A stretch of DNA of 57,487 bases, filler included, from Sphacelaria rigidula (Eukaryota), in the NCBI GenBank assembly GCA_964200075.2. It is 7 parts of 7 records of this genome, joined end to end, with 100 filler letters (N's around TTAATTAATTAA, not from the genome) between each part and the next. Parts side by side here need not be neighbours in the genome. Positions count along the whole stretch, not along the records: positions 1 to 8,128 come from CAXNAA020012198.1; 6 more parts are not named here. The stretch is one strand, 5' to 3'. Below are positions 30 to 54,574 of the stretch, one piece after another; the first letter of the stretch is position 1; each line of letters opens with the position of its first letter. A program made the position numbers and the translations under genes. The notes beneath the pieces are model-generated. The model had not been told where the DNA came from. It did no database searches and saw only the letters and a list, made by a program, of their open reading frames with translations.

Positions 30-628
30 TCGTTCTTGGTTTTCCCGCCCCTTTGAGCGATTCGGATGAAATCCTGCACCACTGCCTTGTTGATCGAGAA
101 GCGGTCGAACGATGCCGTCATCGCCGCTGCGAAGAAGATGTTGAACAGATCGGGGGAGAGTACACAACCTTGGCGGAGGCCCTGGTTTACGTTGAAATAC
201 TCAAATGTCTCGCCGCCGTCCAGGCGTACACTTGCCCGCATGCCGTCATGGAATTGGCGGACGATGGAAACTACCTTGGCGGGTATACCGTAGCGTGCAG
301 AACTTTCCAGAGAAGAGAGCGGTCCACTGAGTCGTACGCTTTTTGGAGGTCGATGGAGCACATATACAGGGGAATAATCTTCTCTCGGGCCAGTTCTTGG
401 AGTCTGCATACAACGAACATCATGTCGACTGTGGAACGGCCAGGTCGGAAACCACATTGTGCTTCTGGGAGGATCCCCTTCCACTCGCAGTAGGCACTGA
501 GTCGCAACGATTTTGAGCACCACCTTGCCCGCGTGGGACCCGAGAGAAATACCGCGGTAGTTGCCGCATTCGTACGGGTCCTGTTTCTTCAAGAGCACCT
601 TGATGATGGTGTCTTTCCACTCTTGCGG
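30..628 (-). mobile_element. Degenerate non-LTR retrotransposon reverse transcriptase fragment (RTE-like)
   Basis: Minus-strand translation across frameshifts gives PQEWKDTIIKVLLKK..GNYRGISL, ILPEAQCGFRPGRSTVDMMF, IDLQKAYDSVDRSLLW and QGLRQGCVLSPDLFNIFF, which are canonical LINE RT motifs. Ends are approximate. Confidence 0.9.
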
Positions 629-3443: not shown

Positions 3444-3936
3444 TTGTACAATCGTTGTCACTAGCCACTGTACTGTAAATTTCACAGGTGTTGCATAGGT
3501 GCGGAGGTGTGAGATTGAACCTTGCCGTCACCGGCAACGGGTGTGTTCGAGCGTATCCATCACCCATCACCCACAATACAAGAAACACATGACAACAGCG
3601 CCTACTTCACCTGCGCTTCAATGATTTGCTGGCGTTTTCCTTGCTCATCAGGTTTAACCGGTTTTCCAGTGAACCGGTTAAACCTGCTGAGCAAGGAAAA
3701 CGAATTAAACGTTTTTTTGTGTTTGATAATGACGCCTCTTATCCGGTAACTTTTTTATTATTGTTTTTGGTATCCGGTGCCCATCTCTTACACGTGAAGG
3801 AGAAACCGAGAAAAATCAGAGGACGTACGGAAGGGCGGACAGGCGGACTCTTTAACTCTTTTTTTTCTTTCATTATAATTGAGATTTCCGGTGCTGGAAC
3901 GTATTGGTTTCTAGCCCCCCCCCCCCTCCTGAAGAT

Positions 3937-3996
3937 CCGTCTCGAAAGGGATGCGTGGTCAATGGTCAAACGACTAAGGCAAGCAACAAATGAGTA
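3937..3996 (+). mobile_element. 5'-truncated LINE 3' end (family A) with a 22-bp target-site duplication
   Basis: ccgtctcgaaagggatgcg...caaatgagta is flanked by identical C12TCCTGAAGAT at 3915-3936 and 3997-4018. Confidence 0.9.
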
Positions 3997-4185
3997 CCCC
4001 CCCCCCCCTCCTGAAGATGAAAGAAGGGAAGTAAACCCTGTTTTTCTTCTCCGCTGGCAGGTCTGGACTACGAGCGTACCTAACCTGACTGGCTGGGAAC
4101 AGCGGCTGCTGCTCTTCCGCTTCCTTCTTTCGACGGCAGTGGTGCTGTCTTCTATCGAAGGGAACATTTCTTGGTCGTGTATTGT

Positions 4186-4411
4186 ATGATGAGTTTTACT
4201 CCGGCCGTAGCACTCTTGGCTGGACTAGGGTTCCTGTTGGGTGCGGATGGGGCACACCTCTCTGGGAGTATCAACGGTTCGAAGATTCTTGCGGCGGGGG
4301 AAGAATGCCCCTCCTGTGAAGTCATGTTCCAGAAGATCCAGGACCCGGCTAGACGCACGGAGAGCCGGTATGGAAAGACTCGTCGAACGGGCATGCATTC
4401 CTACGAAGTTC

Positions 4412-4413
<2 letters not shown>
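4186..4413 (+). CDS. Putative first coding exon of a secreted/ER-targeted protein
   Basis: ATG, signal-peptide-like MMSFTPAVALLAGLGFLLGADG, a CPSC motif, and a CAG|GT donor in phase 0. An upstream pyrimidine-rich acceptor ends at 4060. Confidence 0.6.
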
Positions 4414-4450
<37 letters not shown>

Positions 4451-4550
4451 CGCGCGTGTGTGCTTGATTCATCCTTGTGCGTGCTCTGTGTTCTGTGCTC
4501 TGTGTTCTGTGTTCTGTGTTCTGTGTTCTGTGTTCTGTGTTCTGTGTTCT
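4414..4550 (+). repeat. (GT)n/(CG)n microsatellite followed by a (TGTGTTC)n heptamer array
   Basis: Visible tandem repeats starting at the splice donor. Confidence 0.9.
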
Positions 4551-4824
4551 TTTCACGATACGATTGTGTACAAAAGTTTCGGGCCCTCTCGTGGTGGTAG
4601 AGCTTTGCTGCAACGAACTGAACTTCAAGGCGGTTTCGAGCTCATTAATATTATTAACATTAGTTAGGACCACGAGAAGGTCCTATTTTGTTTTCTTTTG
4701 CTTTTTCGTATCATGTTTTTTTTTCTTTGTCGGAGACACACACCCAGCAGCAAGAAGAACGAAAACGATGTTGACAAAAAGCAAGAAAATTTGCGTTTCA
4801 TGTTTTCCCCCCTCTTTTCTGCAG

Positions 4825-5663: not shown

Positions 5664-7110
5664 TATACATCATTGTGGTATGCTCAGGTGTTGGAACGTT
5701 TTAGGCCTCTGGATGACTGACAACAGCCAGTCTGCACCAATGAGGGGGGGGGGGGAACACTCGAGAGGGAGCGTTTCGTGTTTACAGCACGTTTTAATCG
5801 TTTGTTCAATCGTGTGTTTTGTCATGCATCTTGGCGGCTGGTGGTGTATCGGGGTATTGGCACGTTGGTTGGTTGTCTTTGTGCTTCTGTCGGCAAGTAC
5901 AATTTGCTGCACATACTCTTATCTTACTGTAGCAAAATAAAGATTGATCATGTTAACAGGTGGGCCCCATTGATGTGGTACATCTCGGGAGAATCCCTAC
6001 TCTTATGGCGAATATGGCGAATATTTTTGCGGTGTCATCATTGTGGTGGACTCGATGGGCAATGTTCACGTGGCGGTGTAATTCATGCCGCTCACCACCC
6101 CACCTAGAGATTTGATCGGTTGATCGAATGTCGCACGTTTATTTGCCAATTTTCGTGTCCCAGTAGCGGCGAACTGGTTGCGTGAGGTGAAAATTGCCGA
6201 ATGCCAGCAGAGAGTGTGGACGTTTTTGATGTTGGTGTTTGCTGTGCCCCGCCCTTTGCAAGGTTTGGCGAAAATGGCGATATTATGTCCATTTTTTCTC
6301 TCCCGTGTGTCGAGATCAAACGAACTGTACACAGCACAGTCAGCCAGCACACACGGAGCACACAAAAATACACGCAGATTGATTGGTGACGAGAAAATGA
6401 AGGAAAAAACTGGTCGGCGATGTACAACGTGTAGGTATATGTCATACTTCACCCGTTCCTTTGTCGAACGATGTAGGTGGACGGATTTTACTGTAGAGGT
6501 ACAAGAAGAGCACGCGAATTACCCAGGTCCCGAGTTTTTGCCCAATCGTGGTCGAGGGAGGGATGGATGGCGGTGTCAGGACACCACCTCTCCCCGACAG
6601 TCGCTGTTGTCCTCTTTGGCCCTCTGGATGGTTGAAAGAAATAACTGTTTCGTGTCTTTGGTTTGTAAGATGGTGGGTGCAGCGGTTGCTTCTGGAGAGG
6701 CTGTCATTGCATCGCGCTGTTTTTTTGGTCGCCCGTGCACCTAGATACAGGAAATGTCCGAAATGTTGGTTGATATATATATATATATATAAATGTGAGT
6801 GTGTGAGGGACGAGGCGTGACTTGACAGCCTCGTTGTCATGAGACACGCGCAGCTGATCGTGTGGCACGGCGGGTTTTTCCTTGTTTCCGTACACGTGCG
6901 TTATGCAGTTGATGAATATAGCTAGGTCGCACTAACACACAACGGGAAGTGTATGACGTACCCATCGGATTGCCGATGGTTGTGGGTGTATGTATTCGGG
7001 GTAAGGGTATAACGAATGTTGTGTTCTCGTTGGGCTGTAGAGTGCGGAGAGAGCCGTTCGGATTTATCTTGTTGATGTTGTATGTAATTGTGTAATTTCG
7101 TAAGTCACTG

Positions 7111-7152
7111 CGCAGATATCGGAACGGTTTTTAATGTGAAGACAAGGACAAC
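7111..7152 (+). mobile_element. Retroposon 3' terminus (CAA-tailed family)
   Basis: cgcagatatcggaacggtttttaatgtgaagacaa is identical to about 52706-52740, where it is followed by (CAA)n. Confidence 0.7.
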
Positions 7153-8128
7153 ATTAAAGGTCACTTGTGGACAAAAGGTTTGGAATGTTTTTTTGTAGTC
7201 ATGAGCGCTTTTTGGCGCTTGTGGACGCTCCCCTTCACTCCCTGTTAGTACGTGCTTTCGTATGTAGCGGGCGGGGGGATGGCTATAGACACTATAATAC
7301 TACCGTTGTTGTAGGTCGAGACACTAGGGGTAGATGCATTCGTGCAAAAGGATGACGGGCATGAAACAACATCTATTTTTATCTTTGTGGTGAGTTTTTT
7401 TTCCAAACGTTCGTGCAGTATTGAGCGTTTACGAGATGCTCTTGACACTGCGCTCCCATCACCAGGACTGTTATCTTGAAACAGGAACCCCGTGTGATGC
7501 GGTCCTCAACGTTCACGTCGAGTCTTTTGTACGGTAGGTCGATACGCGGAGCATGTCACCTGAAGGGACAGAAGAGTCAGCCTCAAGTCGGTTACTTCGT
7601 AGACTGCGACGGGGACGAGATCATGCCGCCGGGAGCTTTACCGTTAAAAAGAATCTCATGACAGGGTTAGGGGGATATCATAGATACGGCAGTACTAGAA
7701 TATCGCCAGGATCAATCTGCCTCATGGGGTAAAGGGAGTTGATGGTGAGTCGAAGTCGCTCATCGCTCGCGCTTTGAATGAATCCAATGGGGTAATTCGT
7801 CAGATTATTGAAAAGATCTCGTCGATATCACTATTTCGATAAACACATACATTTTTCGGGATCAATGACAGCATATTTTGTGGTGGCTCCCACACCGTTC
7901 CCCCTTTTCATGAGCGTCTTCTTTCGTTCTTCTGACGAGAAGAGGCTTGTAGGTGTTCCCTTTTTCGCCGGCTAGCGGTGAGGATAATACACTATTTTTC
8001 ACATATCTTTCACGTGTGTTGAGTTGTGAAGCCAAGAATGCCCGCAGAAGATTTCACACCTCGGATAACGTAGTACCTAGCAATTTGTGTTAGTTGCTCT
8101 CAAGTCAGACCCTAGCTATAACATGTGT

Positions 8129-8228
8129 NNNNNNNNNNNNNNNNNNNNNNNNNNNNNNNNNNNNNNNNNNNNTTAATTAATTAANNNNNNNNNNNNNNNN
8201 NNNNNNNNNNNNNNNNNNNNNNNNNNNN
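8129..8228. other. Artificial contig-join spacer
   Basis: N44-TTAATTAATTAA-N44 (stops in all six frames). Confidence 0.99.
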
Positions 8229-13166: not shown

Positions 13167-14419
13167 GAATTTCGTTACGTGAGTACGAGGTAGACTGAAC
13201 ACAACCCAATATGACGGGATCGGCAATTTCTTGCTAGTAAGACTGTGTTCGTTGGAAAGGTGAAACGTAGGGTAAGCCGATAGGAAAAGGAAGAGAGAAC
13301 GGCGCAAAACCCGCGTATTTTTTTGGTTCGAAAGTCGGGTTAAGTTATGATCAATTTTCGGGATTTGGGAGGGGGAACTTTTGCGGGGAAATGGGTGATC
13401 CCGAGTGTATTGTCGAGCAAAACGAAGCAAGGACGCGCGACGGGGCGGGAACGGTGCCAAGGAAGGTCGTCACACCTTCACTTTTTCAACGCCGGAACTC
13501 AGATGTACCTGCTCGGAATGATATCTTCTACCCCTCCTTGGATGGAATCTCCTAATCTTCTCCTTGCAAAATCTCCGACTCTGCCTCAACTTAAATCTCC
13601 TGCTCCGCTCTACCGGGAATCCCCTACAGTAGTGGGCTGTCTAACTAATCATTTTGTGACATTTTGCGATTTTTTCGTAACTGCCGATTTCCTCGGGCTC
13701 TTTTGCTTGCCACCGTTTGTAACATCGGGGATTCAAAGATATTAGTATACGCTCCACATTCCAAGATTTTTTTTCATCTGTGCTCAATATTGAGTAAGTT
13801 GCGGACTGGCCGGTCATCGGGGGTCCTGCCACATTTCAGCCCAGATTCTTACCCTTCCGTATTTTCGGTCCATCGAGCCTGTCCCGATCATATTTGTGAA
13901 GAAATATACAGTTTTGTTGTTGAGAAATTCTGCCTACCCATATCAGTAGGGCCGAAAAACTGTGTTTCATGATCAATAAAACCCTCCTGCTAAACGGGGC
14001 ATTTACTCGTTTCGCCCGATAACACCAACTGACACTGACTTGATCACTGTGTTTCGAGAACGATCTGTTTACTGTACCAAAACTACCGACGCTAGTAATT
14101 TCGAGTTCTATCGAAGAGTAGTACACGAGGAAATGCCCAAAACACCCCTAAATAGTTAGACCGCCCACTACTGTACACCTCTCCATCTGGAATCTTCGAC
14201 GCCGCCCCAACTTCAGTCTCCTGCTCCGCTCTAACTGAAATCCCCTAGCCCTCTCTATCTGGAATCTCCGATTCCGCCTCAACTGAAACCTCTTGCTTCC
14301 CCCTGACTGTAGTCTCCCACATCTCTCTAACTGGAATCTGCGGCTCCGCCGTTACCGGAACCTTCTACTCTGTAAGACCACCGGGAGGCGGCGGTATGCA
14401 AGAGATGTATCGTATTAAT

Positions 14420-14524
14420 ATGAGCCTGATCCGGCGAAAACCCAGCGTGCTCCGTCCCGGCTTTGTACTGTGGGGATGCGAGCTCAATGGCCTCATGACT
14501 ACGGCATGCAAGATTATGAGTACA
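14420..14524 (+). mobile_element. Retroposon 3' end (family B) followed by a C-rich tract
   Basis: gtgctccgtccc...gggatgcgagctcaatggcctcatgactacggcatgcaagattatgagtaca aligns with the family A 3' end. A second short copy sits at about 14565-14596. Confidence 0.75.
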
Positions 14525-16005
14525 CCCCCCCCCCCTCCCCTTCCCCTCCCCCTTCCCCTCCCCATCGTGACTACGGCATGCGGTCGTATGAGTTCACCCA
14601 CCCATCCCCCTCCCCTCTCGCCCGTTCTATGTTTTGGTTTGCATGTAGGTGGTCAAGTATTCGCAGGCAAGGGGGAAGCCGGAGGAAAGGACGATATGGA
14701 CGGATGTGGAGATCAACGAGTTTGTTCTCATGAACAACCTTAAGATAGTGGGGAAGAGGAAAGCCCACTCACTGGCGGAGCTGAGAACGGTGAGGGGCTT
14801 TAGGGTTGGGGTTTAGGTATGGGGGCGCTGTGGGGGGAAGGGGCAGGATTTGATTATAATGTCGTGGCGAACTATCGCAATGCTATCGGTCTTCGCGTCT
14901 CTCGGTGTTAGACGAGATACGTACAGAAGGTAGCATTACTGTACGACGTAGCCCAACCCTCTGACCGGCCGTGTGTGACGTCGATATCTGTGTAATCTCT
15001 GTCATGTTCCACTTGCAAACGTGGTTTGTGTGGATTCTCGGCAAGATTCTCGGGTGGTTCTTTCGTCCGGGTGATGAATTTGGGTCAATGTTGGAGTAAC
15101 ACGCATTATTCTGCCATGATCCATTCCAGGTAACGCTGGGCGTTCCCGCATCGGAGCTCTGGCGAGATGGAGGAGGCCCGCCCAACCCGGGAACTGTAGA
15201 GGTCACGACAAAGCGGCTGAGGGACCATGTGCCAGACCCCCACAACACTCTTCGTCTGAGGTTGGTGCCGACGCAGCATCCCCGTGTTTGTTACTTATTT
15301 ATTCGTCTTGTTTTGTGCGCGTGTGGGTTATGTTCGTTGATATATTTCATCTTTGGCTGTATTCTCGCGACTTTGGCCTTGATTGATGGTGTCTCTGCTG
15401 CCTTCATGCCGCTGCGCTGTAACTATTCCATAGCGATATTATGAACAAACAGTTGGATGTTTTTCGCACTCACAAATGCATAGCTTGTAGCTTCCTCCTG
15501 ACCCCCCCCCCTCCCCCTCTTGATTAATTGATCTTTCAGTGGTGCACTCTGTCGATCTGAGTACGCATGCCGTAATTATAACGAAAACTTGCACACGTCG
15601 GACAGCTCATGAGAGCTACCTTGATATTACCTCTTATTAGACTACCGATCCGGATCATGAGCTAAATTTAGCTCATTTGGTCACTGTTTTCGTATTATAA
15701 TAGTTCCCGACAGCGATGGACGCCGGGCACGCGGTGTAGCGGGGAGGTAACGCTTTTAGTTTCTCAGACACTGCTGTCACGCGTTCGGTGTTCTGGTTTG
15801 TCATTCCAGGTATTGATAGCTCGTGAGCTGTGTGAAAACTTGTGAGGAATTTTGTGTCATGGGGCGTGCACCTCTCCGCTTTTTTATTCGACTCATCAAA
15901 AGACGCTTGCTCCATGTCAGTGTTAAAAGGTCCCTGGCCTACCAGACGAAGCTTTTGCCCCCCCTCCCCTCGTCCCCCCGTTTTTTTCTTCTTGTCTCGG
16001 AGCAG

Positions 16006-16355: not shown

Positions 16356-16455
16356 NNNNNNNNNNNNNNNNNNNNNNNNNNNNNNNNNNNNNNNNNNNNT
16401 TAATTAATTAANNNNNNNNNNNNNNNNNNNNNNNNNNNNNNNNNNNNNNNNNNNN
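16356..16455. other. Artificial contig-join spacer
   Basis: N44-TTAATTAATTAA-N44. Confidence 0.99.
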
Positions 16456-23170: not shown

Positions 23171-23562
23171 CCAAGGGATTGCCCCGCAGCTGGTTGTGGC
23201 TAACCAATCGTTTTCATTTCACCGTCACCCTTCCTGCCCGCAAAATTCCCCGCACTCTTTTTTCCTCCGGATTTCTTGCTGGCATTGTCGCATCGACACG
23301 TACTTTTTTCAACCGGAACCCGACCTTGTGCGCTGGTAGGCGTAACGAACGTCACGCCACACTCGGAGAGGATTATACCTCCTCCCGGAGTCGGTCGAGG
23401 GCGCCCATTCGCCAAACTTGGCTGCAGGAATTGCGAGGTACGCGTGCGGTGGCAGCTCTCACCCGATCGTGACGGCTGTCTCTGTAGGCGTTAGATTTTT
23501 TGTGCGTTCCTTCTTGTGCGCGTGCAGTAAGTCTCCGTCAATCAATCTTGCCATCTACAGCC

Positions 23563-23866
23563 GCCGCGCCCCGGTGGTGTAATGGTCCGACTGTAGCTTT
23601 TAAGGGGCAGAGAACAAGGGTTCGATTCCCGATGCGTTGGGTTTTTCCTTCGTGATATCTCTTCCATCGTGTGAAGTGTGAGAACGTGAGTATACAAAGT
23701 TGTCGACCGAGTTTGTTTGATGTGAGTGGACGCGGTGCGGGGGTGGTGATAGTCATGACCTAACCCGCGAGACCAAAATGCAAGGCGTGTACCGGGGGAG
23801 AGATGGATTGATCTCTTGAGACCACGGACTCGTCCCGAGGACGGGGAGGGGTTCAAAGTGCGACAA
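23563..23866 (+). mobile_element. tRNA-derived SINE family 1
   Basis: gccgcgccccggTGGTGTAATGG (A box) ... GGTTCGATTCCC (B box), ~300 bp, ending ttcaaagtgcgacaa. Four copies occur in three contigs. Confidence 0.9.
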
Positions 23867-24339
23867 CTACATAATCATAAAAGAACAGCGTTGCACATTT
23901 CCTATATGATTACTGCACAGTTCAGGTCCGCTCAATTGCCCAACGGGTACTGCAAGCGCAACACTACCTCCATGGCGTGAAACCCCCTTCCCCTCGTCCC
24001 CAAGGGTTGGCGTCGGTTGGCAACTACGCTGTCACACATGCCACTCACTGCGTAAGCTAGGCAACCAAGTTGCCGTTTTTCAAGACGCTTCGCGTTTTAT
24101 TTTTTTTGGCGAAAACCATGATGCTGGTCGAATTAATAGATCATATTGCGCAGGGTGGGAGATCCTCAACTCCGCCGCGCAAAGGGAATAATCGTACCCG
24201 CGTAGTGCTTGAATGGTGAGACACTCATGAGGCATTGTAACCCGTGGCTGTGTCTGCAAGTCTCGACAAGACCAAAAAGTGAAGTAACTCCGTCGAGGCT
24301 GCCATCCATGCGCAAGATGATTATTCAAGTACACTTAGG

Positions 24340-24582: not shown

Positions 24583-24682
24583 NNNNNNNNNNNNNNNNNN
24601 NNNNNNNNNNNNNNNNNNNNNNNNNNTTAATTAATTAANNNNNNNNNNNNNNNNNNNNNNNNNNNNNNNNNNNNNNNNNNNN
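24583..24682. other. Artificial contig-join spacer
   Basis: N44-TTAATTAATTAA-N44. Confidence 0.99.
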
Positions 24683-24749
24683 CGTACTCATTTGTTGCTT
24701 GCCTTAGTCGTTTGACCATTGACCACGCATCCCTTTCGAGACGGAGCAC
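24683..24749 (-). mobile_element. LINE family A 3' end, cut by the contig edge
   Basis: Reverse complement of gtgctccgtctcgaaagggatgcg...aaatgagtacg. A G14 tract (24755-24768) lies at its 5' flank. Confidence 0.85.
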
Positions 24750-25036
24750 TTTCCGGGGGGGGGGGGGGAGAAGGGTGAGGGCGGAGGGCGGGACGTGCTT
24801 CCCATCCTCTCCGTCCTCGGGAAGAGTCCATGGTATCAAATCACGACTCCATTTTTCCCTTGGTTGTTAGCTCATTTTTTTCGAGAAGCAAACACCAACA
24901 AGTACAGGGGAATTGATTGGCGCTTCCACTCACAAATTAAACTTCGAAAACTAGAAAAAGAATAGTGTTAGTGTTTGTGTCAGCGTCAGCGTCATTTTCT
25001 TTTTTCTTCTACTGCGCGTCTTCCCACCCTTCGCAC

Positions 25037-25240
25037 CTTCAGGTTCTGAGAAGCAACCGGGTAGCACGTGCGATCGGGGTAGGTGAAGGCGTTCAGGAAC
25101 GTGTTCAGGGATCCTTTCATTAGATCCACGAACGGCTCCTTCACTGGAAACTTGCGGCTACCGCAAAGCACCGAGTGCTCCAGGATGTGAGGGACACCCG
25201 TGCTGTCCTCGGGTGGAGTGCGGAATGTCACTCCGAAAAC
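25037..25240 (-). CDS. PREP: Presequence protease (pitrilysin family M16C) exon 2
   Basis: VFGVTFRTPPEDSTGVPHILEHSVLCGSRKFPVKEPFVDLMKGSLNTFLNAFTYPDRTCYPVASQNLK contains the inverted zinc motif HxxEH. AG/GT boundaries, phase 0 at both ends. Confidence 0.97.
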
Positions 25241-25599
25241 CTGAGTCGTAAGGGCGGGCGGATGCGCAGGGAACAGTGGATGATGAAAGGGGATTTTCAT
25301 GAGGCGTCGGTCAAAACCACTTCGCAGAAAGAACCGCGGAAATAAAAAAGAAGAGACGTACGTGAATAGGCCAGGGGTACGACCATGAAAGCAGGTTAGA
25401 TCGTTATTACGCCGGGAATGGGGTCACTCTCTGGCTGCGTTTCGCAGCATGATCGCAACTTTTCTTGCCGGGGTTTTCCAAGCCACGATATGACAGCACG
25501 GTGGCAAATCTTCTGCTAAACGGCACGCAACCGGCATACGAAAGATGCATATCGCAGGGGTCGTTGTGACTTTCATCCCAGGAGCTATACCCCCCCCGC

Positions 25600-26750
25600 C
25601 GCCGATCGCAGACCAGTATGCATACCTTGGCATACAGATACACGAAAACTGTTGTTGGGATGGACACAGTGGTGAAGCAGCAGGGAAGGGTGAGGAACAG
25701 ATGAACAAGACGGACGTGATGCTACGACTACGAGACTCGCAACTCGATATTAGGATTCAGAGATGTCTTCTGATGAGGGTGACTGTAACGAACCTGGATT
25801 ATGCCGAGGTGCGGTAATGGAAAGCGGAATTGGTGAAGCAGCTTGAAACATTACAGATGACAGCAGCTACAAGAATGGTTGGATGCTCAAAAACGACGAG
25901 TGATACAATGGTGAGAGAATAAATTGGGAAAATACCCACTTGAGCAAAACAGACACATGAGAAAGTTTGAGATGACAATATCAAATGGGGGAAAATGCCA
26001 AGAATGCAAGTGCCCGCCTTAGTTCATATGGCTGTAAGGAAAAAGTGACGAAAGGGCAGGCTGGAATAAGGTGAAATAGCGTAGTCGAGAAAGAATGAAA
26101 GGACATGGGAGGGAACCGAGACGAAATAAATCAGTGTCCATGGGTGAACGTGGGGGGTTCAAGACGAAAGCACGAGGAGTGATGAAAATAAAGGTAAATA
26201 CAGCGCTGAAAAAAAGTGGAGGAAGAGCACTTGACGGTGTACGTGGGGGTTGAGAGAAGGGATGGAGATGAAAACATCTCTGCAAAGCCCGACGGACTAA
26301 GCGTCAAATTAAAAACTACGATTTCGGGTGGGTAACCCGGACCCGTCATAGAGAAAAAAGGAGGTACACCAATATTCGGGCAAAGGAGAGAGTAGATGCA
26401 CTTGATTGCCCCCGTGGCAAAGCAAATCCCATATAGCGAGAGAATGCGAACTTTATAATGGAAACGGAACGTCTGAGAGGGGCAAATGTGGGAAGTACAC
26501 GAAGGTGGCATGAAATCGTTCGGTACATTGGACGAAAGCGAGAGAACGATGGCCATTCTAGGAGATGCATGGTGGCCACAGACGACGAAACAAGATGGGA
26601 TTAAGATGTGTAAAATATTCTTGTGTCATTTATGGAAGAAACGTAACAGGTGCCGGAATGTTGAAGGTGTCTCTACTAGGACTAAAGGAGGGGTTGTGTC
26701 TTGAGAGGGATGCGTGGTCACTGGCCTTGTGATGAGTACGCCTCCGACCC
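25600..26750 (+). mobile_element. Decayed LINE 3' half inside PreP intron 1 (antisense to the gene)
   Basis: Colinear with 48415-49261 (YLG, LETLQM, CPRGK zinc-knuckle remnant), continues through LWKKRN and ends gatgagtacg plus a C-rich tract. Confidence 0.85.
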
Positions 26751-27642
26751 CTGCCCCTCCCCGTTTGAGAGCAAACTGCAGGTTTGTCATGAAAATTTTT
26801 AAACCGTGGACAGTATATGGTGAATGGATTCAATATACCGAAAATGTACCAGAATAAGTATCGTCGATCGACGATGCGGATTTTCATAAACGTCTTCGAG
26901 CCGAACACGGATTCTTCACAGCGTAAGCGATGCGAAGGCATCAACTTTCCCCGGAAAATAACCTGACATGGCTGTGATGTGGTGCAGGATAACAGTGTCA
27001 TGCGTAGCAAGTCCCCCCAGTCATCAGGCCCACGAACAACCGTAATACGCACCGACACACCTTCATGGTATAGTGGAGGCACTGAGCCCTGCATGGCCGA
27101 TCCTAGGATTGAGTGCTCTTGAAAACATCCTCGGACAGACGAATGTGTTTGAAAATAAGCCCCTCCTATGAAGGCTGCTAAAGCAACCACTCCTCGGCCG
27201 TTGGCGTGAGAATCGAAACGCCTCTTGGCTCTCCCGCCAAAAAAATGCCGTGGTGCCTCATACCGAGCTCATACGAGTTGTCGATGCTTCGTTCGTGCTA
27301 ACTGGAAACAGGCGCTTCACGACGCTTCGAACACCATCCTCACGTGTACAGAAAAATGGGCATGTGACTCATGACGGATGCGAGTGTAATTAATTTCGAT
27401 CAGTGCACACTGGTGTGCGAATAGCCGTGTGTTGTGCGGATGAACATCGACCCTCAGTGTTTGGGTAACGAGCAAGAAGAACCAACTAGTTCACGTCGAG
27501 ACGTACCTTGCTGCAACACGAAACGCCTCGTCGAGTTGTGTTACACCCAGCCAGATTTCGCGCCAGTTTCACCTTCTACAGAGTTCACCCGGCATTTCTT
27601 GTTCGAGGAAGGGATTTCAGAACCACCCCCCCTGATTGGTCT

Positions 27643-27666
27643 ATAGCATATATGATTATGAGTACA
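27643..27666 (+). mobile_element. 24-nt family B 3'-end insertion with a 15-bp duplication
   Basis: atagcatatatgattatgagtaca is flanked by CCCCCTGATTGGTCT at 27628-27642 and 27667-27681. Confidence 0.75.
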
Positions 27667-28433
27667 CCCCCTGATTGGTCTCTACACCCCACTGGCTTTC
27701 GAGGAACCGCGCCGCATTTTGTGCGCCACGCGGGAACGGTCACAGCCCACTCTGACGCAGTGTCGTGATAATATGTCAAGTGTACGCTCCGTACATGGCG
27801 TCTCGCGAAGTCAGCCGCAATAACGTTCGTCAATCCCAACTAACTGCCCCGTGTGTAACAGGAACAGGTCCTCATCTGACTGCCCCGTGCGTATTTCGCT
27901 GAGGTGGCACGACTTGTACTGTACTGTCACCGCATCACTGTCTGATATTCTTGTCCACACTACTGTCTGTCGTGGCGAAAAGATCATACTGTGTGCGAGG
28001 GTATATTAGGTTAAGTTGTTTTCAAGTTTGTATAGCTGTTGATACGAGTATTATGAAAAGTGTGGAGTACCTATGATATCTGGTGTCTGCGATGGAACAG
28101 ATGTGTGCAGTACATTTAATACTCACTATAGGGACAAATGAAAGATTGAGTCAAGGGGTAAGAGCAGCCGTCACGACAAGACACATGATCGACACCAGGC
28201 ACCGAGAAGCACCACACAGCAGCATACAGAACTTGGCACGACCAGTGCACGCACAAAACTCCACGCGACTAATTGAACCAGAAGCACCGTGTTAGTGCGT
28301 TATCATTTTACCCCCTGCGAATACCTGCAGCTTTACCCCGCACAGCGTACACTATCAATTGCAGGGCGGACGAGGGGGACAACTTGCACTAGCCGCGAGA
28401 AACAATAGCCCGCATCTAGAGCACGTGACACAC

Positions 28434-32676: not shown

Positions 32677-32743
32677 ATGCTCCATGTCGAAAGGGATGGG
32701 TAGTCACCGGTCAAACGACTAAGGCAAGCAACAAATGAGTACA
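32677..32743 (+). mobile_element. LINE family A 3' end followed by a C-rich tract
   Basis: cgaaagggatg...ggtcaaacgactaaggcaagcaacaaatgagtaca, then C-runs. Confidence 0.8.
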
Positions 32744-32809: not shown

Positions 32810-32909
32810 NNNNNNNNNNNNNNNNNNNNNNNNNNNNNNNNNNNNNNNNNNNNTTAATTAATTAANNNNNNNNNNNNNNNNNNNNNNNNNNNNNNNNNNN
32901 NNNNNNNNN
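32810..32909. other. Artificial contig-join spacer
   Basis: N44-TTAATTAATTAA-N44. Confidence 0.99.
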
Positions 32910-34485
32910 CCCCCCCATCATCCTACAGGGAAGGCCAAGATAGCGGCGAAATGTCTGCGAGGTGGCCCATTTCATGATCTCTTCGAAGTCCTCCCTGGTC
33001 ATCATTTTGCCGGATTTCACCTCTTCACGCCGCTCGTGCTGGCCGCAAAATCTTAACGAGATGAAGAGGAGTCGCTACCCGAGCGCGAGTGTGAGCCTAT
33101 GACGGCTTCGCGTTTGCTTGTGCTGACGGTGCTGCGGAAGATCGTGTCGATTCGCTCCGCTGAGGCGGGACGGAGAGGTATGCGGCAACCATCATTGTTA
33201 CACGAGTCATAAGACAGCCCGCAAAATGACGGGTCTATCGTCATGTATAACGGGTGGGTACGGTCAGTACTGTTATTCTCGCTTGATATCCATTTAGTTT
33301 TTTTTTTTACTGTGTTGGTAGATCTGGTCTGTTTGTTTCACCACACCCCGACCAACTCCGGGAGGGGGGGAGGGGGAGGGGGAACATTTTAAGTTGTTGT
33401 TTTTTTGTGTTGATTTGCTTCGTTTTCGGAGTCTCAGAAGAAGCCGCTCAAGGAGCGCTTCCATCTCATGTAAGGAATAGTAACGACGGTTCTGGAAAGG
33501 CGAGACTACGCCTGTGACGACGGGTCCGAGAGATTGGGTTAATGTGCAGGGATGAGAAGAAGAGGAAGAAGAAAGAGAGGAAGGAGAATACTGTGGGTCA
33601 AATGATGAGGGTTGATACGCACATCCACCTGTACAGATGAAACAGGTTTACCTTAGATTTCAAGTCTGACCCTCTTTACCGGATTTTTCTTACCTGTGTC
33701 ATCATTTGTTTCCGTGTTTTTCACATACGTACGTGCATGCAGTCGTAACACCATTGAAACATACATACATACGCACGCATACGCATGAGCGGTTATACGG
33801 TGGGGGTCCACATTTTTTTTCTGAGGCTCTGCACCGTCGGAGTCTCTGTATGACACACCTTGGCCTTAGAGTGCAGCCTGAGAAACCTTTTGGACTGAAA
33901 TGTGCACCCCTACCGTATAATTCGTCCCTCCCTCCCTCCCTCCCTCCCTCCCTCCCTCCCATACATACATACATACGCACATGCATACGTGCGCACATAC
34001 GTGAAAGCGCAGTGTACTTCATTTCGTGTGCACATGACACAAGATGGCGTGTCAGTTACAGACACATATGCACTGCACCGACACACACGGGCGCGGTTAC
34101 AAGAAGAGAAAGACCAAACACATGGTTGCGATATGAGCTTCCTGTTCATTAGTTGTCTATCTTGTGTATTTTCACAACCACTGTACAGTACAAACATATG
34201 TATGTGTATTATGCACTATGTTAACATGTAGCGCATGTTCTCACCTTCTTGAAGTTGTTTAAATGTTTCCTTGATCTTCTTCGCGCTGTCTGTCTAGCGC
34301 GTAAAGCTCAGCAGTGTCTGGTGACGCCCTCCCCGGCTGTGAGAGTAATATCTGACGGAGAGAGTCGTGCAACGGTAGGGAGGAGCAGCGTTGCATTCCC
34401 GTCAATCTTGAGAAAAACTTCAACGAGGGCAAAAATAATGTTGATGTCTATGTACTGTTGGTTCTTCATTGCACGGCTCATATTC

Positions 34486-34502
34486 GTGTTGTTGTTATTG
34501 TT

Positions 34503-34562
<60 letters not shown>

Positions 34563-34585
34563 ATTGTTGTTGTTGTTGTTGTTGT

Positions 34586-34625
<40 letters not shown>
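34486..34625 (+). repeat. (TTG)n/(ATG)n microsatellite
   Basis: Visible simple repeats. Confidence 0.95.
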
Positions 34626-34773
34626 CTCATCGTTGCGGTTTGCTTACGCGCGTTTTCTCTTCGAAAATTAGTGATGTTTTCGTCAATTAATTCACGGTTC
34701 GCACGAATCATACTTCATACGGGTTGACTTCCCTTGAATATTGAGTGCGAATCATGTACCAAAGCGTCATCCG

Positions 34774-35465: not shown

Positions 35466-36129
35466 ATGATTGATTAGTCCAAATGTTGCAATTGGGACGG
35501 ATAACTGGTTTTTTCGTCCGAACCTTGAATAAGTTTTATCGACCTCCTCGGGTAGAACGTCTACCTCGCGACCACGACTTGGACCGTAGGGGATCAGTTT
35601 GCTTGGGACCATCAATTTATGTGAGACAACTCTGTTTGTGGGACACGAATCTCGAAATGTGAGTCAGGTAATCAAGTAAAGAAAACCAATCGAATCACTC
35701 AGATCACCCAAAATCGACTAATTTTATCAAAACAATCGAATCAATCAAAACAGTTATAAACGCCATAACCCAAAGCGCTACACGTGTTTTTCACCTCTTC
35801 TATGGTGATGTTTTGCGCCTGCCAAACATCGAAAGAGCTTCTTGCTGGCAGCAGAGATATCGGATGGTGGTCCACAGGCCCGGCTGGCCAACGGGGCTCG
35901 CCGACCGGAGCCGCTTGACCTGATCATTTCGTGCGTCGTCGACTCAGTCGGTTAGCGTTTTATAATAGTTGGTTTGTTGGGCAGTTTGGTCGGCCCTTCG
36001 GTTCGTTAGCTACATATTGTAGACAAACCACGTTCATTGTGTGTATTTGCATGCGTGTGTTCACTTCAAATCATTTCTCGCCCGGAATCAATCGTTTAAG
36101 ACAACGAGAACCACCACCATCATCGTCAG

Positions 36130-36130
36130 T

Positions 36131-36212
<82 letters not shown>
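36130..36212 (+). repeat. (AAC)n(GAC)n microsatellite
   Basis: Visible simple repeat. Confidence 0.95.
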
Positions 36213-36213
<1 letters not shown>

Positions 36214-36419
36214 ATGAAAAGGCCGTAACGATAGCAATGGTGAACACCAACCTTTCGATTGACGTGTCGTGATTAGATCCGCGATCATTTTCTTTCAGGA
36301 TCACCTCGCAAGCGTTTGCCTACCTTGGTTTCCTCACTGCCTGCATGGAAAATTCATCCATTCACCATTCGTATCCAAGTATCTCACTACAATCACCATT
36401 ACTGCTATCAGTGGTGTAG

Positions 36420-36728
36420 GCCGCGCCCGGGTGGTGTAATTGTCCGACTGTCACCATTAGGATAGAGGAAATGAGTGTTCGATTCCCGACGTGTTGGGTT
36501 TTTTTTTCGAAGTATATGATTTCCACCGTGGAAAGCGTCAGTACGTGAGTGAACGAAAAAATAGGTGAGTGAGTTTATGTGACGAGAATTGACGCAGTGC
36601 GGGAGTGCTGACCCAACCCGCGAGACCTAATCCAAGGCGTGTACCGGAGAAGTGTGTTGATCCCTTTAGACCACGGACTCGTCCTGAGGAAGGGAAGGGG
36701 ATCAAAGTACGGCCATATAAATAATATA
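36420..36728 (+). mobile_element. tRNA-derived SINE family 1
   Basis: Colinear with 23563-23866, with A/B boxes and an AT-rich tail. Confidence 0.88.
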
Positions 36729-37420
36729 TCAAAATGTATCGGCCTACAGTTCCAACCCATATGCAAGGGGAAACGGACGTACACAGCTAGCTTATCTTGA
36801 GGTGGGGGCACAGCAAGTGCAAGCCCTCGATCGTTTCGGAGTCAGCTGGAACGGTGCCCAGGATCGTCAAGGAACTCGAAGCCAGGAAGAAATGAAGTGC
36901 TCAGAGCTGACTGCCTTTCTGGCAGTGATTATGGGTCTCTCTGTGACCAAGCGACTTACGCCCTATTTGCCCACGGTTGAGCGAAATCAAGCAATTTGAG
37001 GGGTCAAATCGATCACGGCTTAGCGCCGAGGCCCGAGTTCGAACTCGGAGAAAGAAGAAATTGAGTGCTCAGGGCTGTTCGCCCGCCTGGCAGTGAGTAT
37101 CGGTCTCTGTAACCTAGTGCTGATGCCTCTTAACTTGTACAGTGTTGAGAGAAAACAAGCGGTTTGATTACTCAAATATAGCCCAGAGCTCAGCGCTCAG
37201 ACCTGACCACGAAGCTGATATTAGCTGAAAAACGGTTCCCAACGTCTTTCCACACGTAAAGTCGTTCCATGAAGTAGACCACGCGTTCAATCGATTTACT
37301 TCAGAGAGTTTGTATTCGGTTCAGACACGACGCTTGACAAATAGCAAGCGGTAATATCAGGACTGCTAGCAGCATGGAGTGACACCTCGTTCAAACTGCC
37401 ACGGTCGAACAGAAGGGGGA

Positions 37421-37570
37421 GGGCGTGTACTCATGATTCTGCATGCCCGTAAGCACAAGGCCATTGACCTCGCATCGCTGCAAAGCCGGGGCGGAGAACG
37501 CCGGGTTTCCGCCGGACCAGGCTCGCACTCAATCATCAAGACAGCGAAGCGCCGTGATGAGTTCGGCGGA
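37421..37570 (-). mobile_element. Retroposon family B 3' region
   Basis: Minus strand reads ...gatgcgaggtcaatggccttgtgcttacgggcatgcagaatcatgagtacacgccctccccc. Confidence 0.7.
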
Positions 37571-38230
37571 CCGCATGGAGGGTGAGCTGCATCCTGCTGA
37601 GATTGTGTTGCCCGAGGCTTGCTATTATCTTTCATATAGATGACAGCCTCGAATGAACTGCTTTATTTTCTGGCCTCGCTAGTCCAAGTGACGGCCAAGG
37701 GTTACACATACTGACGAGTACCTCACATCATTTATACATAACGTAGTACGATCATCCCCTGCGCGCGGAGTTGAGGTTCTCAACTCCAGACAGTATGGTA
37801 TAACTCGAACGCCATCACGGTTGCCGCAAAAAAACGCAAGAGGAAAAACACCCCGGCAACCTGGTTGCTGCCTAGCCTACGCAGTGAGAGGCGTGTTTTA
37901 CAACATCGTTGCCAACCGACGCCAACTCTCAAAAGTGGTGCGAGTGGGGGGGGAGGGAATCAGCTTACCCCCTTTGTTCCACCGTTCTTTCTTTTTCGTT
38001 TCTTTTTCTAGTTGTTTCTTCAGCGAGTGGGCCCGTTTGTTTACCTCAGGACCTCCACCTTGTGGCCACAGCTGAATTCCCTCGGGGATCAGGTAATGTG
38101 CGAGTAACAACCTAGTCGACCAATCGATCAACACAACTCGAAGGCTTCTATCACTAGCATACCGTTATAGGAACATGTCTTGCAAGTAGCATATGATGGG
38201 GGGAAACAATTTATTATGGCTGATGTTGCC

Positions 38231-38547
38231 GCCGCGCCCCGGTGGTGTAAGGGTCCGACTGTTGCCATTAGGGTGGTGAGAACGAGGGTTCGGTTCCCGA
38301 TGTGTTGGGTTTTTTCCTCGTGGTATCTGTTTTTCACCGTGGAAAGCGTGAGAACGTGAGTAAACAAAGTAGTTGACTGAGTTTGTTTGACGTGAGTTGA
38401 CGCGGCGCGGAAGTGCTGACACAATCCGCGAGACCGAAGTGCAAGGCGTGTACCGGGGAGAGAGGGGTTGATCCCTTGAGACCACGAACTCGTCCCGAGG
38501 AAGGGGAAGGGTTCAAAGTGCGACAAATAAGTAAATAAATAAAATAT
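38231..38547 (+). mobile_element. tRNA-derived SINE family 1
   Basis: Colinear with the other copies, with an (AAAT)n tail followed by (GAA)n and (ATAATC)n. Confidence 0.9.
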
Positions 38548-38744
38548 AATATAAAGAAGAAGAAGAAGAAGAAGAAGAAGAAGAAGAAGAAGAAAAAGAA
38601 TCATGATAATCATAATAATCATAATCATAATCATCATAATCATAATAATCATAACCAGAATCAGAATGACACATGAGCGCGTTCTTCATCACAAATACCA
38701 TGTAAATAACAGCGAAATAAATATATCCAAAAAAGTCATTCAAC

Positions 38745-39295: not shown

Positions 39296-39735
39296 TCACT
39301 TATTATCCGCCGACTCTAGCGTGGCAGTGATACCTACGCTTTTAGCCGCAATATCTCCGTAGTACGCCTCAGTACCTTCAGATGCGATGTCGCCATCACC
39401 GTTCTTCTCGGTTGCTGCTGAAACGGTGACGGCCTCCGTTGCTATAGCCGTCGAAGCAAGCCTACTACTGAAAGTCCCGTGTTCGTCTGGCAACGGCATG
39501 GTGTGCCCGAAGAAGGCGTCGCCGTTGTTGTTGTGGTTGCAGTAGTTGCAGTAGTTGTTGGAGTTGCAGTAGTTGCAGTTGTTGTTGTTGCTGTTGTTGT
39601 TGTTGTTGATGTTGTTGTTGCTGTTGTTGCCGTTATCGTTGTTGTTGTTGCTGTTGCTGCTGCTGTACATGGTACCCGAAGCATAGCCAACGCCAGCAGG
39701 CGCCAGAGGATACTCGAGGGTACCGCACACGTGAT
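39296..39735 (-). CDS. Terminal exon of a low-complexity (N-rich) protein
   Basis: Acceptor ttcctccccgcag, phase 1, open frame to TGA. Phase matches the upstream exon. Confidence 0.7.
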
Positions 39736-40303: not shown

Positions 40304-40889
40304 CTGCTGCCAACCCGTTGCAACGCTGGGGCGGCTGGGCACCATCATCGAAAGGCGCGGGCAGAGGCAGACAATGCTGCAGGGAAAAGGTGCTGAAGTC
40401 CTCGACTTTGGCATGCCCACCGTGGGGAACGTTTTGTTGTTGATTGTGTGGGTGGTGTTGTTGCTGCTGCCGCTGTCGTTGTTGTTGTTGTTGCGGTTGT
40501 TCATGGCGGCCTTGCTGTTGGTGATGTTGCTGCTGGTGGTGGTGCGGACGTTGTTGCTGCTGCTGAAGATGTTGCTGCTGTTGCTGCAGACGTTGTCGTT
40601 GATGCTGGCCCTGCACCTGTTGCTGCTGACCCTGCACCGGCTGCTGCTGACCCTGCACCTGCTGCATCGATGGCGCTGAGTACGACTCTGTGTGTGCAGC
40701 ACTATCACCAGCATGTCGAAAATCAGCCTCAAGACGGTTACGGCCGTCGATGGCACCGTCGGCGGCAACGGGGCGATCAAACAACTGCCTGGGCTGAAAG
40801 GTACCACCACCTACTGCAGTGACAGCACTACTGCCATCTGGGAAGCGGGTTGCCTTCGTCACCCGCGAGTAGTCGTGCGCGGTCCGTGC
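40304..40889 (-). CDS. Penultimate exon of a Q/H-rich protein
   Basis: Open frame with a long mixed-codon polyQ region. Donor G|GTAAC in phase 1 joins 39735 to rebuild GAT (Asp). The acceptor at 40890 is plausible. Confidence 0.7.
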
Positions 40890-41035: not shown

Positions 41036-41135
41036 NNNNNNNNNNNNNNNNNNNNNNNNNNNNNNNNNNNNNNNNNNNNTTAATTAATTAANNNNNNNNN
41101 NNNNNNNNNNNNNNNNNNNNNNNNNNNNNNNNNNN
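41036..41135. other. Artificial contig-join spacer
   Basis: N44-TTAATTAATTAA-N44. Confidence 0.99.
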
Positions 41136-42985: not shown

Positions 42986-43346
42986 CAAACTCTAGAGCCC
43001 AGTGAATCTGAAAAGTGGGCTAGGCCCCCTCTCTGGGGGGTGATCCAAAGTGTCCAAGACGTGTGCTGGCGACTTTCTCTGTTTGAGGGTCAAAACGTGG
43101 GTCGAATTTCCCAAACATGAACAATCCGTGGGCCCAGAGTCTGTGTGCCATGACATCCGACCTCGTGAGTATGTCTAATACGACCCAATACCCGTCATTC
43201 TTGTACGTCGGTGAAAGTAATGTTAATCCGGATTAGCACTTTTGTGATTTGTGAACAAGCGCGTTCGTACGATGTTCTTTGCTTGCAACAATGCCTGAAA
43301 GTGGCCTCTTCGCAGAAGGTCCAAAACGCCCGCCCTCCCTATCGTT

Positions 43347-43462
43347 CGTAATGAGCGCCAGAACGTTGGAGGTACCTCTATTAGAAGTAGGAACGGTGGT
43401 CCGTCTCAAAAGGGATGCGTGGTCAATGGTCGAACGACTAAGGTAAGCAACAAATGAGTACG
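43347..43462 (+). mobile_element. LINE family A 3' end (116 bp) with a degenerate duplication
   Basis: Encodes RNERQNVGGTSIRSRNGGPSQKGCVVNGRTTKVSNK*. Flanks are ccctccctatcgtt (43333-43346) and tcctccccatcgtt (43468-43481). Confidence 0.85.
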
Positions 43463-44064
43463 CCCCCTCCTCCCCATCGTTGGATGACTCCGAGGTGGCG
43501 CTTTCGGAAAAGAAGCAGCCTAAAACCCCCACCCCCTATCGATGGATGGAGTTCAAAAGAACCCCTTGGCAGAACAAGTGACCGAAAACACCCACGCACC
43601 CCAGGGGTGTATGAGTCCGTTTACTGTTTGCTCGCTACATAGATTGCGACGACCGCAGACGTACGCCACGCACGTTTCCCTCCTTGAGCTAGCTCCTGAC
43701 TGCGCATGCATGATGATGGTGTTTGCTGGTGTCCCTATCGTTGGATTACTCCAAATTGGACTGCTGCCGAGATAGCCCCCCCCCGAACCGGACAAAAAAG
43801 TGCACGGAGGCGATGATCATAAAGGCAGTTAAAGCTGGTTCCGTGCTGCACGACGCGACTTATTTGGGCGTAATAGCTAATTTCGAACTGCTCCACGCCT
43901 CTCATGTGGGCGAACTTGCTGGAAACGAGCCCAATGGTGGGATCGCAGCCGTTTTGTCGCGCCGTCTCACGTGCACTTTTTTGGGGGGGGCTATATCGGC
44001 ATGACTCATTGGCCCCTTAGTAGAAGTAGTGGCACAAAATACCCCCTCCCCCACTATCGTAAGA

Positions 44065-44606
44065 ACCTCACAAGAACATTTTACGTATCGTATAACAGTC
44101 CTGTTTCGCCATCTGTAGCCACCATATATATATATATCCTAGTATGGCCGCCGTTTCCTCCCTACTGTCTATCTGATGCATCAAGCGATTTCATGCCACA
44201 TTCCTAAATGTCCCGCATTTCCCCCTCTTGCGTGTCCCGTTCCTCCCCGCATAGTTCGCGTTCTGCCTCTATATAAGTTCCGCTCTCTACTGTTTTGCCA
44301 CAGGGGCAATCTTGTGCATCTAATTCCTCCTCATCTTTACTACTGGTATATCTCTTTCTCCTTTCTGGCAGGTCCAGGTCCTCCACCCGAAATTGCAGTT
44401 CCAATTTCTTCGCGTAGTCCTTCGGGCCATGCAGATATATTTTCATCCCTATCCCCTCCCTCAACCCCCCGCACATCTTCATATGCTCTTTCTCGTCTAC
44501 TTTGCGTATGGGCATTCCGTTCCCCCTTATTTCTGCCATGTCTCTTACTTTTGTCCTATACCCTCCACATTCACCTTTGGACAGTTCGTCATTGGTTCCT
44601 CCTATT
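44065..44606 (-). mobile_element. LINE ORF2 C-terminal fragment
   Basis: DLDLPERRKRYTSS..CPCGK, homologous to 48910-49261 and 26100-26630. Confidence 0.88.
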
Positions 44607-45080
44607 TGTGATAAGGCTCAGAAGCGTTGCGAGATATTCTCAGGATATGCGGGTCTGGTCGTAGACCGTGGGTTCCGTGACGCTTTGCACCGCGCTCATT
44701 GTTATCATGATGGCGAGATGATACACAATGTAGGCGAGCCGCGCCCCCCACCTTGGACACTTGTTGGCTTACCGTGCTCGCTTGCCTGGTTCCTCCTGCT
44801 ACTCTGGCACCATCACCATGATCTGCTCCTACGAGTATGGTTGCGCCACAGCTATACTGAGCTAGCTGCATTTAGGTAAAATATAAGCCATCAACATGTG
44901 AGTCTCTGTTCTCCCATGCAGGTACACATGATAAGTATTATTGCGTGATTGCATGATGGAGGAGCTGAGGTCTGTACGATGTGCCCACGTGGGAGCTTGG
45001 ATAGCTGTAACCATGGTATCCCCTGGTACTCGTAGTGAGAGACCCCAGCCAATGCATGAGCTTACTCCATCTTCATCACA
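44607..45080 (+). mobile_element. Probable LTR (474 bp) without a matching target-site duplication
   Basis: TGTGAT...ATCACA inverted termini. The first ~155 bp are nearly identical to the reverse complement of 46930-47084. Confidence 0.65.
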
Positions 45081-46136: not shown

Positions 46137-46291
46137 ATAGGGAAAACATTCTGTGATATTCCGACCGAAAAAGGGGAGAAAAGGCTACGAGAGGAGAAAC
46201 AAAACAGCGAGGGGCAAGCAGGTTTAAGACAAAACCGTTGTTGCGTCGATCATGTGTACACATTAGGTGAGATCATTCAAGGTGGGGGGGG

Positions 46292-54549: not shown

Positions 54550-54571
54550 CTGCGTCATTATCATGTTATCA

Positions 54572-54574
54572 GTC

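Follow-up and report, generated by a model that had tools for sequence, protein, structure and literature searches.

The LINE 3' end at 3937-3996 raises the question of how a retrotransposon without a poly(A) tail comes to abut a run of cytosines, and whether this run belongs to the element, to the site that it entered, or to both. The window, that is the whole stretch of brown-algal DNA analysed here, is 57,487 bases long and consists of seven pieces of about 8.1 kb each, with N44-TTAATTAATTAA-N44 spacers between them and one additional N10 gap. Since it is a concatenation and not a single locus, spacing across the spacers carries no meaning:

8129-8228, 16356-16455, 24583-24682, 32810-32909, 41036-41135 and 49262-49361: spacers between pieces

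The gene context is that of short-exon eukaryotic DNA with an insulinase/M16 fragment at 24995-25423 (-), and includes a COG3 exon at 51312-51635 (-) with 91% identity to Ectocarpus siliculosus and 81% to Discosporangium. Sequencing runs that contain piece 1 bear the label 'algae metagenome' or a coded organism name, and the host is accordingly taken to be a brown alga. Long trinucleotide arrays (CAA/CAG/GTA-type) are found partly within open frames (34421-34668, 36103-36213, 39490-39707, 40405-40610 and 54568-54807), and a dispersed repeat family of about 300 bp, which is unrelated to the LINE, is present in four copies of 64-87% identity (23560-23901, 36417-36750, 38228-38561 and 56947-57297), of which the one in piece 7 (56947-57297) sits between inverted CGATAG + C-run ends. 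An RT fragment at 113-628 (-) shares just 28% identity with the ORF of the long element L010 described below and runs off its piece; like the RVT_1 matches at 2-634/274-588 it represents a different, distant LINE family and not the C-tailed LINE.

The original prediction placed one and the same LINE 3' end at six places. Five of these are exact copies of the motif CAACAAATGAGTAC, for which the shuffle mean is 0.36, and the remaining one at 26700 belongs to a diverged subfamily (D) that ends at 26741. Allowing up to two mismatches brings the total to six matches, a number reached by none of 100 shuffles; the sixth, at 31627 (-) with two mismatches, was judged not to be a LINE copy. A scan for TGAGTA[CT] combined with inspection of the flanks gathered ten 3' ends in the window, all reading ...ATGAGTAC(A/G) with the exception of GAGTTCA in one decayed case. 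The copies are spread over pieces 1, 2, 4, 5 and 6 of the seven joined pieces, and the earlier description of three independent contigs has to be replaced accordingly. The 3' ends and the longer LINE segments are as follows:

3984-3997 (+), 24684-24697 (-), 32729-32742 (+), 43448-43461 (+) and 46293-46306 (-): exact matches to CAACAAATGAGTAC
3937-3996 (+): c1, family A, a 60-bp 5'-truncated LINE 3' end with 96% identity to the L010 3' end
24683-24754 (-): c2, family A, a 72-bp LINE 3' end with 98.5% identity to L010, cut on its 3' side by the piece boundary
24755-24768 (-): C14 run adjoining c2 at its 5' end; the sequence upstream of the run (24769-24800) is older and C-rich
32681-32743 (+): c3, family A, 63 bp, ending GAGTACA at 32743, with a composite tail C10TC8TC8TC through 32773
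43347-43462 (+): c4, family A, 116 bp, between degenerate C-rich duplications
46292-46332 (-): c5, family A, 41 bp, inserted within an older LINE copy
14400-14622 (+): subfamily B 3' end, ending at 14524, with a 45-nt C-rich tail
14570-14596 (+): 27-bp copy inserted into the subfamily B tail, with a C-rich run of its own
27643-27666 (+): 24-bp B-like copy, with the end ...GATTATGAGTACA
37400-37550 (-): subfamily C 3' end, ending at 37426, with the end ...AATCATGAGTACA, then CGCCCTCCCCC
25602-26741 (+): subfamily D, a decayed LINE covering ORF residues ~1003-1374 (tblastn, and blastn against L010), with the end ...GATGAGTACG
47103-49260 (+): decayed LINE body with RT and C-terminal CCHC region, 72% amino acid identity to L010, running off the piece
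46137-46889 (+): older LINE RT fragment, host of c5 (tblastn against L010)
44071-44617 (-): LINE fragment of another subfamily (51% at the amino acid level), its 3' side reaching ...GCCGATATAG, then C8 at 43983-43990

A C-rich run (26742-26763) directly follows the end of subfamily D, the terminus of which is also written ...GTGATGAGTACG at 26741. In total, tblastn with the L010 ORF detects 12 LINE segments (HSPs) in the window, and a Pfam RVT_1 match lies within the window LINE body at 48083-48430.

The parent element was sought with the translated window RT, read through with its three stops as X. Two full-length relatives with APE and RT domains come from metagenome assemblies (71% and 67% identity), and the others, unnamed Ectocarpus products of 37-64% identity, are the closest among named proteins; precomputed Exo_endo_phos and Exo_endo_phos_2 domains are assigned to the proteins P0002 and P0003. 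Pattern scans for long external copies returned three metagenome loci (L001-L003) and one contaminant contig among prokaryote genomes (L004). No relatives emerged from two viral scans, one being without a match and the other giving seven pattern-matching stretches of which none was confirmed by tblastn, and the remainder of the metagenome-assembled genome G001 holds no further copy. The contig behind L004, here called L010, is 5259 bp long and has an intact ORF of 1382 amino acids, with Exo_endo_phos and Exo_endo_phos_2 matches at residues 193-437, a part that no window copy keeps, and an RVT_1 match at residues 763-1012 (E=6.7e-32). Its C-terminus, ...GAPSRKGCVVNGQMTKASNK, is the same peptide that ends P0002, P0003 and P0005, and the Ectocarpus proteins have a related ...VVNG... 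ending. The TGA stop of L010 lies inside AAATGAGTACG and is followed by C13, which leaves only about 5 nt between ORF and C-run and a 3' UTR of about 5 nt plus C13, and from the position of this stop the 60 bp of c1 comprise the final 18 codons of the ORF, its TGA stop and GTA.

The window copies are collinear with the L010 3' end and form a truncation series of 24, 27, 41, 60, 63, 72, 116 and >1100 bp with one common 3' end, so that their description as 5'-truncated LINE 3' ends holds. A SINE was considered and rejected, since the 60-72-bp units are collinear over their whole length with the final codons of the LINE ORF and have no extra head. The parent is an APE-type LINE of a brown alga: reverse transcriptase, APE endonuclease, a common 3' end, 5' truncation and variable duplications are all present. 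The best relatives of solved structure are L1 ORF2p and R2, and these matches do not discriminate between LINE clades. A poly(A) or A-rich/simple-repeat tail is common among LINEs, though not universal; this family, with one long ORF comprising endonuclease, reverse transcriptase and a CCHC motif, has oligo(C) where other LINEs have poly(A) or a microsatellite.

The constancy of the 3' end extends beyond family A. All subfamilies, which share only 34-78% amino acid identity with the L010 ORF, have the block GGGATGCG.GGTCAATGG with little or no variation, and an alignment of 11 sequences has 16 invariant columns in the last ~70 nt. This conserved block doubles as coding sequence (..VVNG..). RNAalifold predicts a hairpin, CGUCUC-GAAA-GGGAUG, at -4.7 kcal/mol with compensatory changes in 0 of 11 pairs, and Rfam has no family that matches the 3' end.

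What follows the terminus is equally uniform. Thirteen ends could be scored, nine in the window and four in the external long copies (c2 was left out, its flank lying beyond the piece boundary), and all 13 have at least five C among the next eight bases, a composition found at 3.5% of window positions. None of the 13 carries an A-run or poly(A), in agreement with what was originally claimed on both points, and no base besides C is constant after the terminus. The four external ORF-bearing copies, which lie on unrelated metagenome and MAG contigs, continue after their termini with C8, C10, CCTC7 and C13. At c3 and subfamily B the C-rich tails are composite and 30-45 nt long. The window has 64 C/G runs of at least six bases, whereas 200 shuffles gave 17.6 on average and never more than 29; this 3.6-fold excess suggests that the LINE family makes C-runs in addition to using them.

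Several further sequences are found next to C-runs. TAG directly precedes seven of the 64 runs of at least six, where about one is expected (3915, 43776, 43990(-), 45243, 47089, 56765 and 57388(-)), and four of these seven read (G/C)A(T/G)ATAG or CGATAG. The end of the fragment at 44071-44617 (-) may represent a second type of terminus that also has a C tail. Directly after C-runs, a motif (T)ATCG(T/A)(T/A)GGAT(G/T)(A/G).. is present at 43476, 43538 and 43737 and, on an unrelated metagenome contig, in L002 1-100 (-). Its resemblance to L010 at 4679 is weak, and it may mark where full-length elements inserted in C-tails begin. At c4, at 14564 and in a single joint of sequencing run X3, a short TATCG(TT) separates the C-run from the LINE segment. 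An inverted duplication at 43730-44010 has facing arms about 200 bp apart, each composed of ...GCCGA(G/T)ATAG, a C8-9 run and AAAAAAGTGCAC. The longest C-runs of the window, C21 (8291-8311) and C23 (45243-45265), have no recognisable LINE terminus upstream, and an internal part of L010 is matched at 88% by a 26-nt stretch whose end lies ~39 nt before 45243.

To call target-site duplications, each 3' flank was aligned locally, by an automated procedure, with the 420 nt that lie upstream, and the results were then checked by eye. Four of the nine copies have clear duplications of 10-22 bp, all of which begin with at least five C and directly abut the terminus, as had been proposed for three of the copies:

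3915-3936 and 3997-4018 (+): c1 duplication, C12TCCTGAAGAT, 22/22 identical, the upstream copy ending exactly at the 5' end of the insert
27626-27642 and 27667-27681 (+): duplication of the 24-bp copy, C7 versus C5, then TGATTGGTCT (C5TGATTGGTCT, 15/15 identical)
46333-46342 and 46279-46291 (-): c5 duplication, C5ACCTT versus C8ACCTT; CCCCCACCTT, 10/10 identical
43328-43346 and 43463-43481 (+): c4 duplication, degenerate, 19-20-nt C-rich, ending ATCGTT

At c1 the downstream C12 of the duplication (3997-4018) doubles as the C-run tail of the element. No duplication was detected within 420 nt at c3, B, C and D, which would be older copies or have their 5' ends further off, and at the 27-bp copy (14570) the C-rich repeat is indistinguishable from the host tail, leaving the duplication ambiguous. 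The L010 3' flank has no second copy in its 5.3-kb contig; if the 5' end is placed at 4679, a duplication without C's, GT[A/T]GGGGG, may be read, although this is a weak reading. On confinement of the insertions to one kind of repeat the observations point both ways: four of four clear duplications have the C-run first and c2 adjoins C14, whereas four of nine copies are without a callable duplication and the L010 target possibly lacked a C-run. Because every callable duplication starts with a C-run, the primer of the first strand would be a G-run on the other strand, and the priming from G-runs that was originally suggested fits the data in this respect. The bases beside the putative nicks follow no pattern in the four duplication cases.

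An approximation of an empty site is available for c5, which has a paralog at 47837-47960 without the insert and without one AAGGT copy. The empty site deduced from it, ...ATTCAAGGTGGGGGAAAG..., has a pre-existing run of five, as the original prediction would require, and the filled 3' junction has eight. Between the two copies of a duplication, the run lengths compare as 12/12, 7/5 and 5/8. Differences of this order are explicable by homopolymer instability or assembly error, so the extra C's of c5 are weak evidence for a templated tail. At c1 there is no LINE-end homology upstream of 3915, and no joint that skips 3937-4018 is present among the joints listed (15 of 137) for the contigs of four sequencing runs; the missing empty allele proves nothing, and the pre-insertion state at 3915 is deduced from the duplication only.

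These contigs, from four runs (X1-X4) of two studies, were placed on piece 1. Their summed word depth, which is not a copy number, is ~10-70 in unique flanks and 0.8-4.8 million in the c1 bin. Loose ends behind 3997-4011 continue as poly-C (99-653 contig ends per listed row), and their consensus has 13-20 further C's beyond the 12 of c1 with an agreement of only 0.34-0.53. Before 3936 there are 537-792 loose ends per run, some of them upstream LINE sequence (...AGTAGGAACGGTGC), others C-runs. Among the joints listed, those that return to 3936-3939 from 4005-4008 are supported by 1-31 contigs per row and run, and by 7-31 where they return to 3936; 2-7 letters such as TGC or GTGC are often interposed, and the joints represent head-to-tail arrays of unit, C-run and unit. 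It follows from the joints and loose ends at 3936-3939 that TCCGTCTCG, or a point a few bases ahead of it, is where many copies begin, c1, c2 and c3 among them. X2 contigs span both filled c1 junctions (3543-3962 and 3983-4404) and an X1 contig spans the right one (3982-4404). X1 differs from the window by six single bases from 3707 to 4726 (in 3700-4730) and X2-X4 are identical to it, which implies that the c1 insertion is common to two slightly different strains. Another highly repeated segment lies at 7047-7317 (summed contig depth ~4e4-1.4e5 compared with ~10-70 in the flanks), and some contigs join C-runs directly to 7107.

It is proposed that the oligo(C) run is probably both tail and target, a nicked G-run pairing with a C-run in the RNA and priming reverse transcription. 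The proposal is modelled on the poly(A)/T-run priming of L1 and on the positioning of R2 by downstream homology. The element RNA would include the C-run of the donor copy, and the target strand that bears a G-run would be nicked. The 3'-OH of this G-run would then pair with the C-run of the RNA and prime at ...GUAC(R), the G:C pairing setting the start point, and a second nick 0-10 nt past the run would yield a duplication that begins with the C-run. The specificity may lie in the endonuclease or only in the pairing of primer and template. The C-run would be inherited as the tail of the new copy and thus serve at the same time as target, as duplication and as tail of the next generation. New copies would favour the tails of earlier ones as landing sites, building head-to-tail arrays, and the family would enrich the genome in C/G homopolymers. 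Examples of the insertion into resident tails that the pairing model predicts are the copy at 14570, the cluster at 43328-43800 and the contig joints.

The run was originally regarded as largely target DNA beside a tail-less element with an endonuclease that nicks G-tracts. Taken strictly, this account has the RNA ending ...GAGUAC(R), the endonuclease nicking specifically beside G-tracts and all adjoining C-runs being duplicated target. That the run pre-exists as a target is clear from the duplications, which hold the whole C-run (exactly 12 C's in each c1 copy), and from the paralog standing in for the c5 empty site, and the constancy of C alone after the terminus agrees with it. As a complete account it is nevertheless unlikely, since it needs thousands of pre-existing long C-runs, and so very many copies cannot rely on independent runs of this kind unless the family itself makes them. 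The runs behind the four external long copies, the hundreds of contig ends in four sequencing runs that exceed the 12 C's of c1, the composite tails of c3 and B, the three C's that c5 has beyond its target and the excess of C/G runs all indicate that the C-run is more than target, and as donors always have a C-run a read-through RNA would include it in any case. A better label for the element is an oligo(C)-tailed, C-run-seeking LINE. The converse, that the run is purely an element tail, copied from RNA or produced by slippage, would make the true duplications the 5-10 bp after the run and the upstream runs older retro-copy tails at which insertions cluster. The part of the duplication without the run measures 10, 10 and 5 nt in three of the four cases (about 6 nt at c4) and resembles a fixed stagger; the TAG before the upstream C12 at 3915, as before other C-runs, could be the terminus of another element; and the possible L010 duplication has no C's. 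This reading is rather more doubtful still, given that the C-run lies exactly at the left edge of the repeat in four of four clear cases with a length that tracks the downstream run, that the c5 site is within LINE coding sequence where G5 is ordinary sequence and no old tail, and that the sequence upstream of 3915 is devoid of element homology.

The abundance of unit, C-run, unit joints, together with the fact that many copies begin at the same base (TCCGTCTCG at 3936/3937, with c2 and c3 starting at most 10 nt away), could also be produced by a satellite or minisatellite of the 60-72-bp unit plus C-run that spreads by recombination, or by a separate SINE-like RNA. Dispersed single copies with duplications in unique flanks, graded 5' ends from 24 to >1100 bp with one 3' end, and a unit that is collinear with the end of the LINE ORF and has no separate head make this very improbable. 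Hardly any weight attaches to sequencing or assembly artefacts such as poly-G calls: homopolymer lengths are error-prone and contigs often break at runs, but the C-runs are internal with unique sequence on either side, are reproduced without differences by X2 and X3 contigs, and are also present in four unrelated assemblies. Returning to the oligo(C) run as both tail and target, a broader interpretation can be put forward only tentatively, namely that a brown-algal LINE clade of at least five subfamilies, with termini ...GTACR and possibly ...ATAG and with short derivatives, may have swapped poly(A)/T-run for oligo(C)/G-run pairing. Polyadenylation would play no part in defining its RNA 3' end, and a 3' UTR would be all but absent; the system would target itself, as each tail turns into a target, and it may be the main source of the C/G-homopolymer excess of the genome.

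In target-primed reverse transcription by human L1 ORF2p, poly(A) RNA pairs with a T-rich nick, as outlined in parts of two papers (PMC11014359, PMC10830416). The brown-algal LINE resembles L1 in combining an APE endonuclease with an RT, in a primer homopolymer that would be complementary to a homopolymer at the RNA 3' end, and in its variable duplications, heavy 5' truncation and seeding of homopolymer tracts. It is unlike L1 in that the homopolymer is C and not A and the run cannot stem from polyadenylation, in that there is no 3' UTR and the ORF stops ~5 nt before the run, and in that its conserved 3'-terminal sequence suggests stringent and not relaxed template recognition. R2 possesses a restriction-like endonuclease and a single rDNA site, and downstream homology in its read-through transcript positions the start of the cDNA. 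RNA sequence downstream of the brown-algal element would likewise pair with the target and set the cDNA start, with the difference that an APE endonuclease and any G-run as site would replace the restriction-like endonuclease and the single rDNA site.

For UnaL2, tail formation is accounted for by a slippage model involving (TGTAA)n. Stringent-type LINEs of the zebrafish L2 family have a 3' stem-loop and a short-repeat tail, according to sections of one study (PMC4176376). The brown-algal LINE shares with them a 3'-terminal sequence that is conserved over diverged subfamilies and a short repetitive tail that would be regenerated at each insertion, and departs from them in that the tail is a homopolymer, the predicted hairpin is without covariation support and the conserved block is also coding. 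APE LINEs that target simple repeats include Waldo ((ACAY)n), Mino ((AC)n), Kibi ((TC)n), Koshi ((TTC)n) and Dong ((TAA)n), as given in excerpts of a 2013 review (PMC3812793). Like these elements of the R1/Tx1 group, the brown-algal element is APE-type and inserts into a simple repeat; their targets are di- to tetranucleotides in animals, with no homopolymer C/G tail or target in the excerpts of that review (PMC3812793), and the targets of the brown-algal LINE differ from them in including runs as short as C5. The full-text literature search returned no LINE with a C tail or C-tract target and nothing on brown-algal LINE termini, which is a weak negative as bracketed spellings of 'poly(C)' are unsearchable. 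A C/G homopolymer as tail and target is therefore best seen as an unusual variant of a well-known LINE insertion mechanism, and if Repbase or Dfam already lists brown-algal (C)n-tailed LINEs, the finding reduces to a well-documented example.

How much of target choice in L1-like elements is due to the endonuclease, and how much to pairing between the nicked end and the RNA tail, is debated. A LINE lineage that naturally works with C/G would put the pairing rule to an independent test and would demonstrate that one homopolymer can stand in for another. A further question is by what route an RNA 3' end is formed and recognised when its C-run is encoded and a 3' UTR is lacking, and tools for RT-based insertion could have a practical use for an orthogonal pair of tail and primer. 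A LINE of this kind could explain the origin of the many G/C tracts in this genome, tracts that tend to adopt G4 and i-motif structures and are difficult to replicate.
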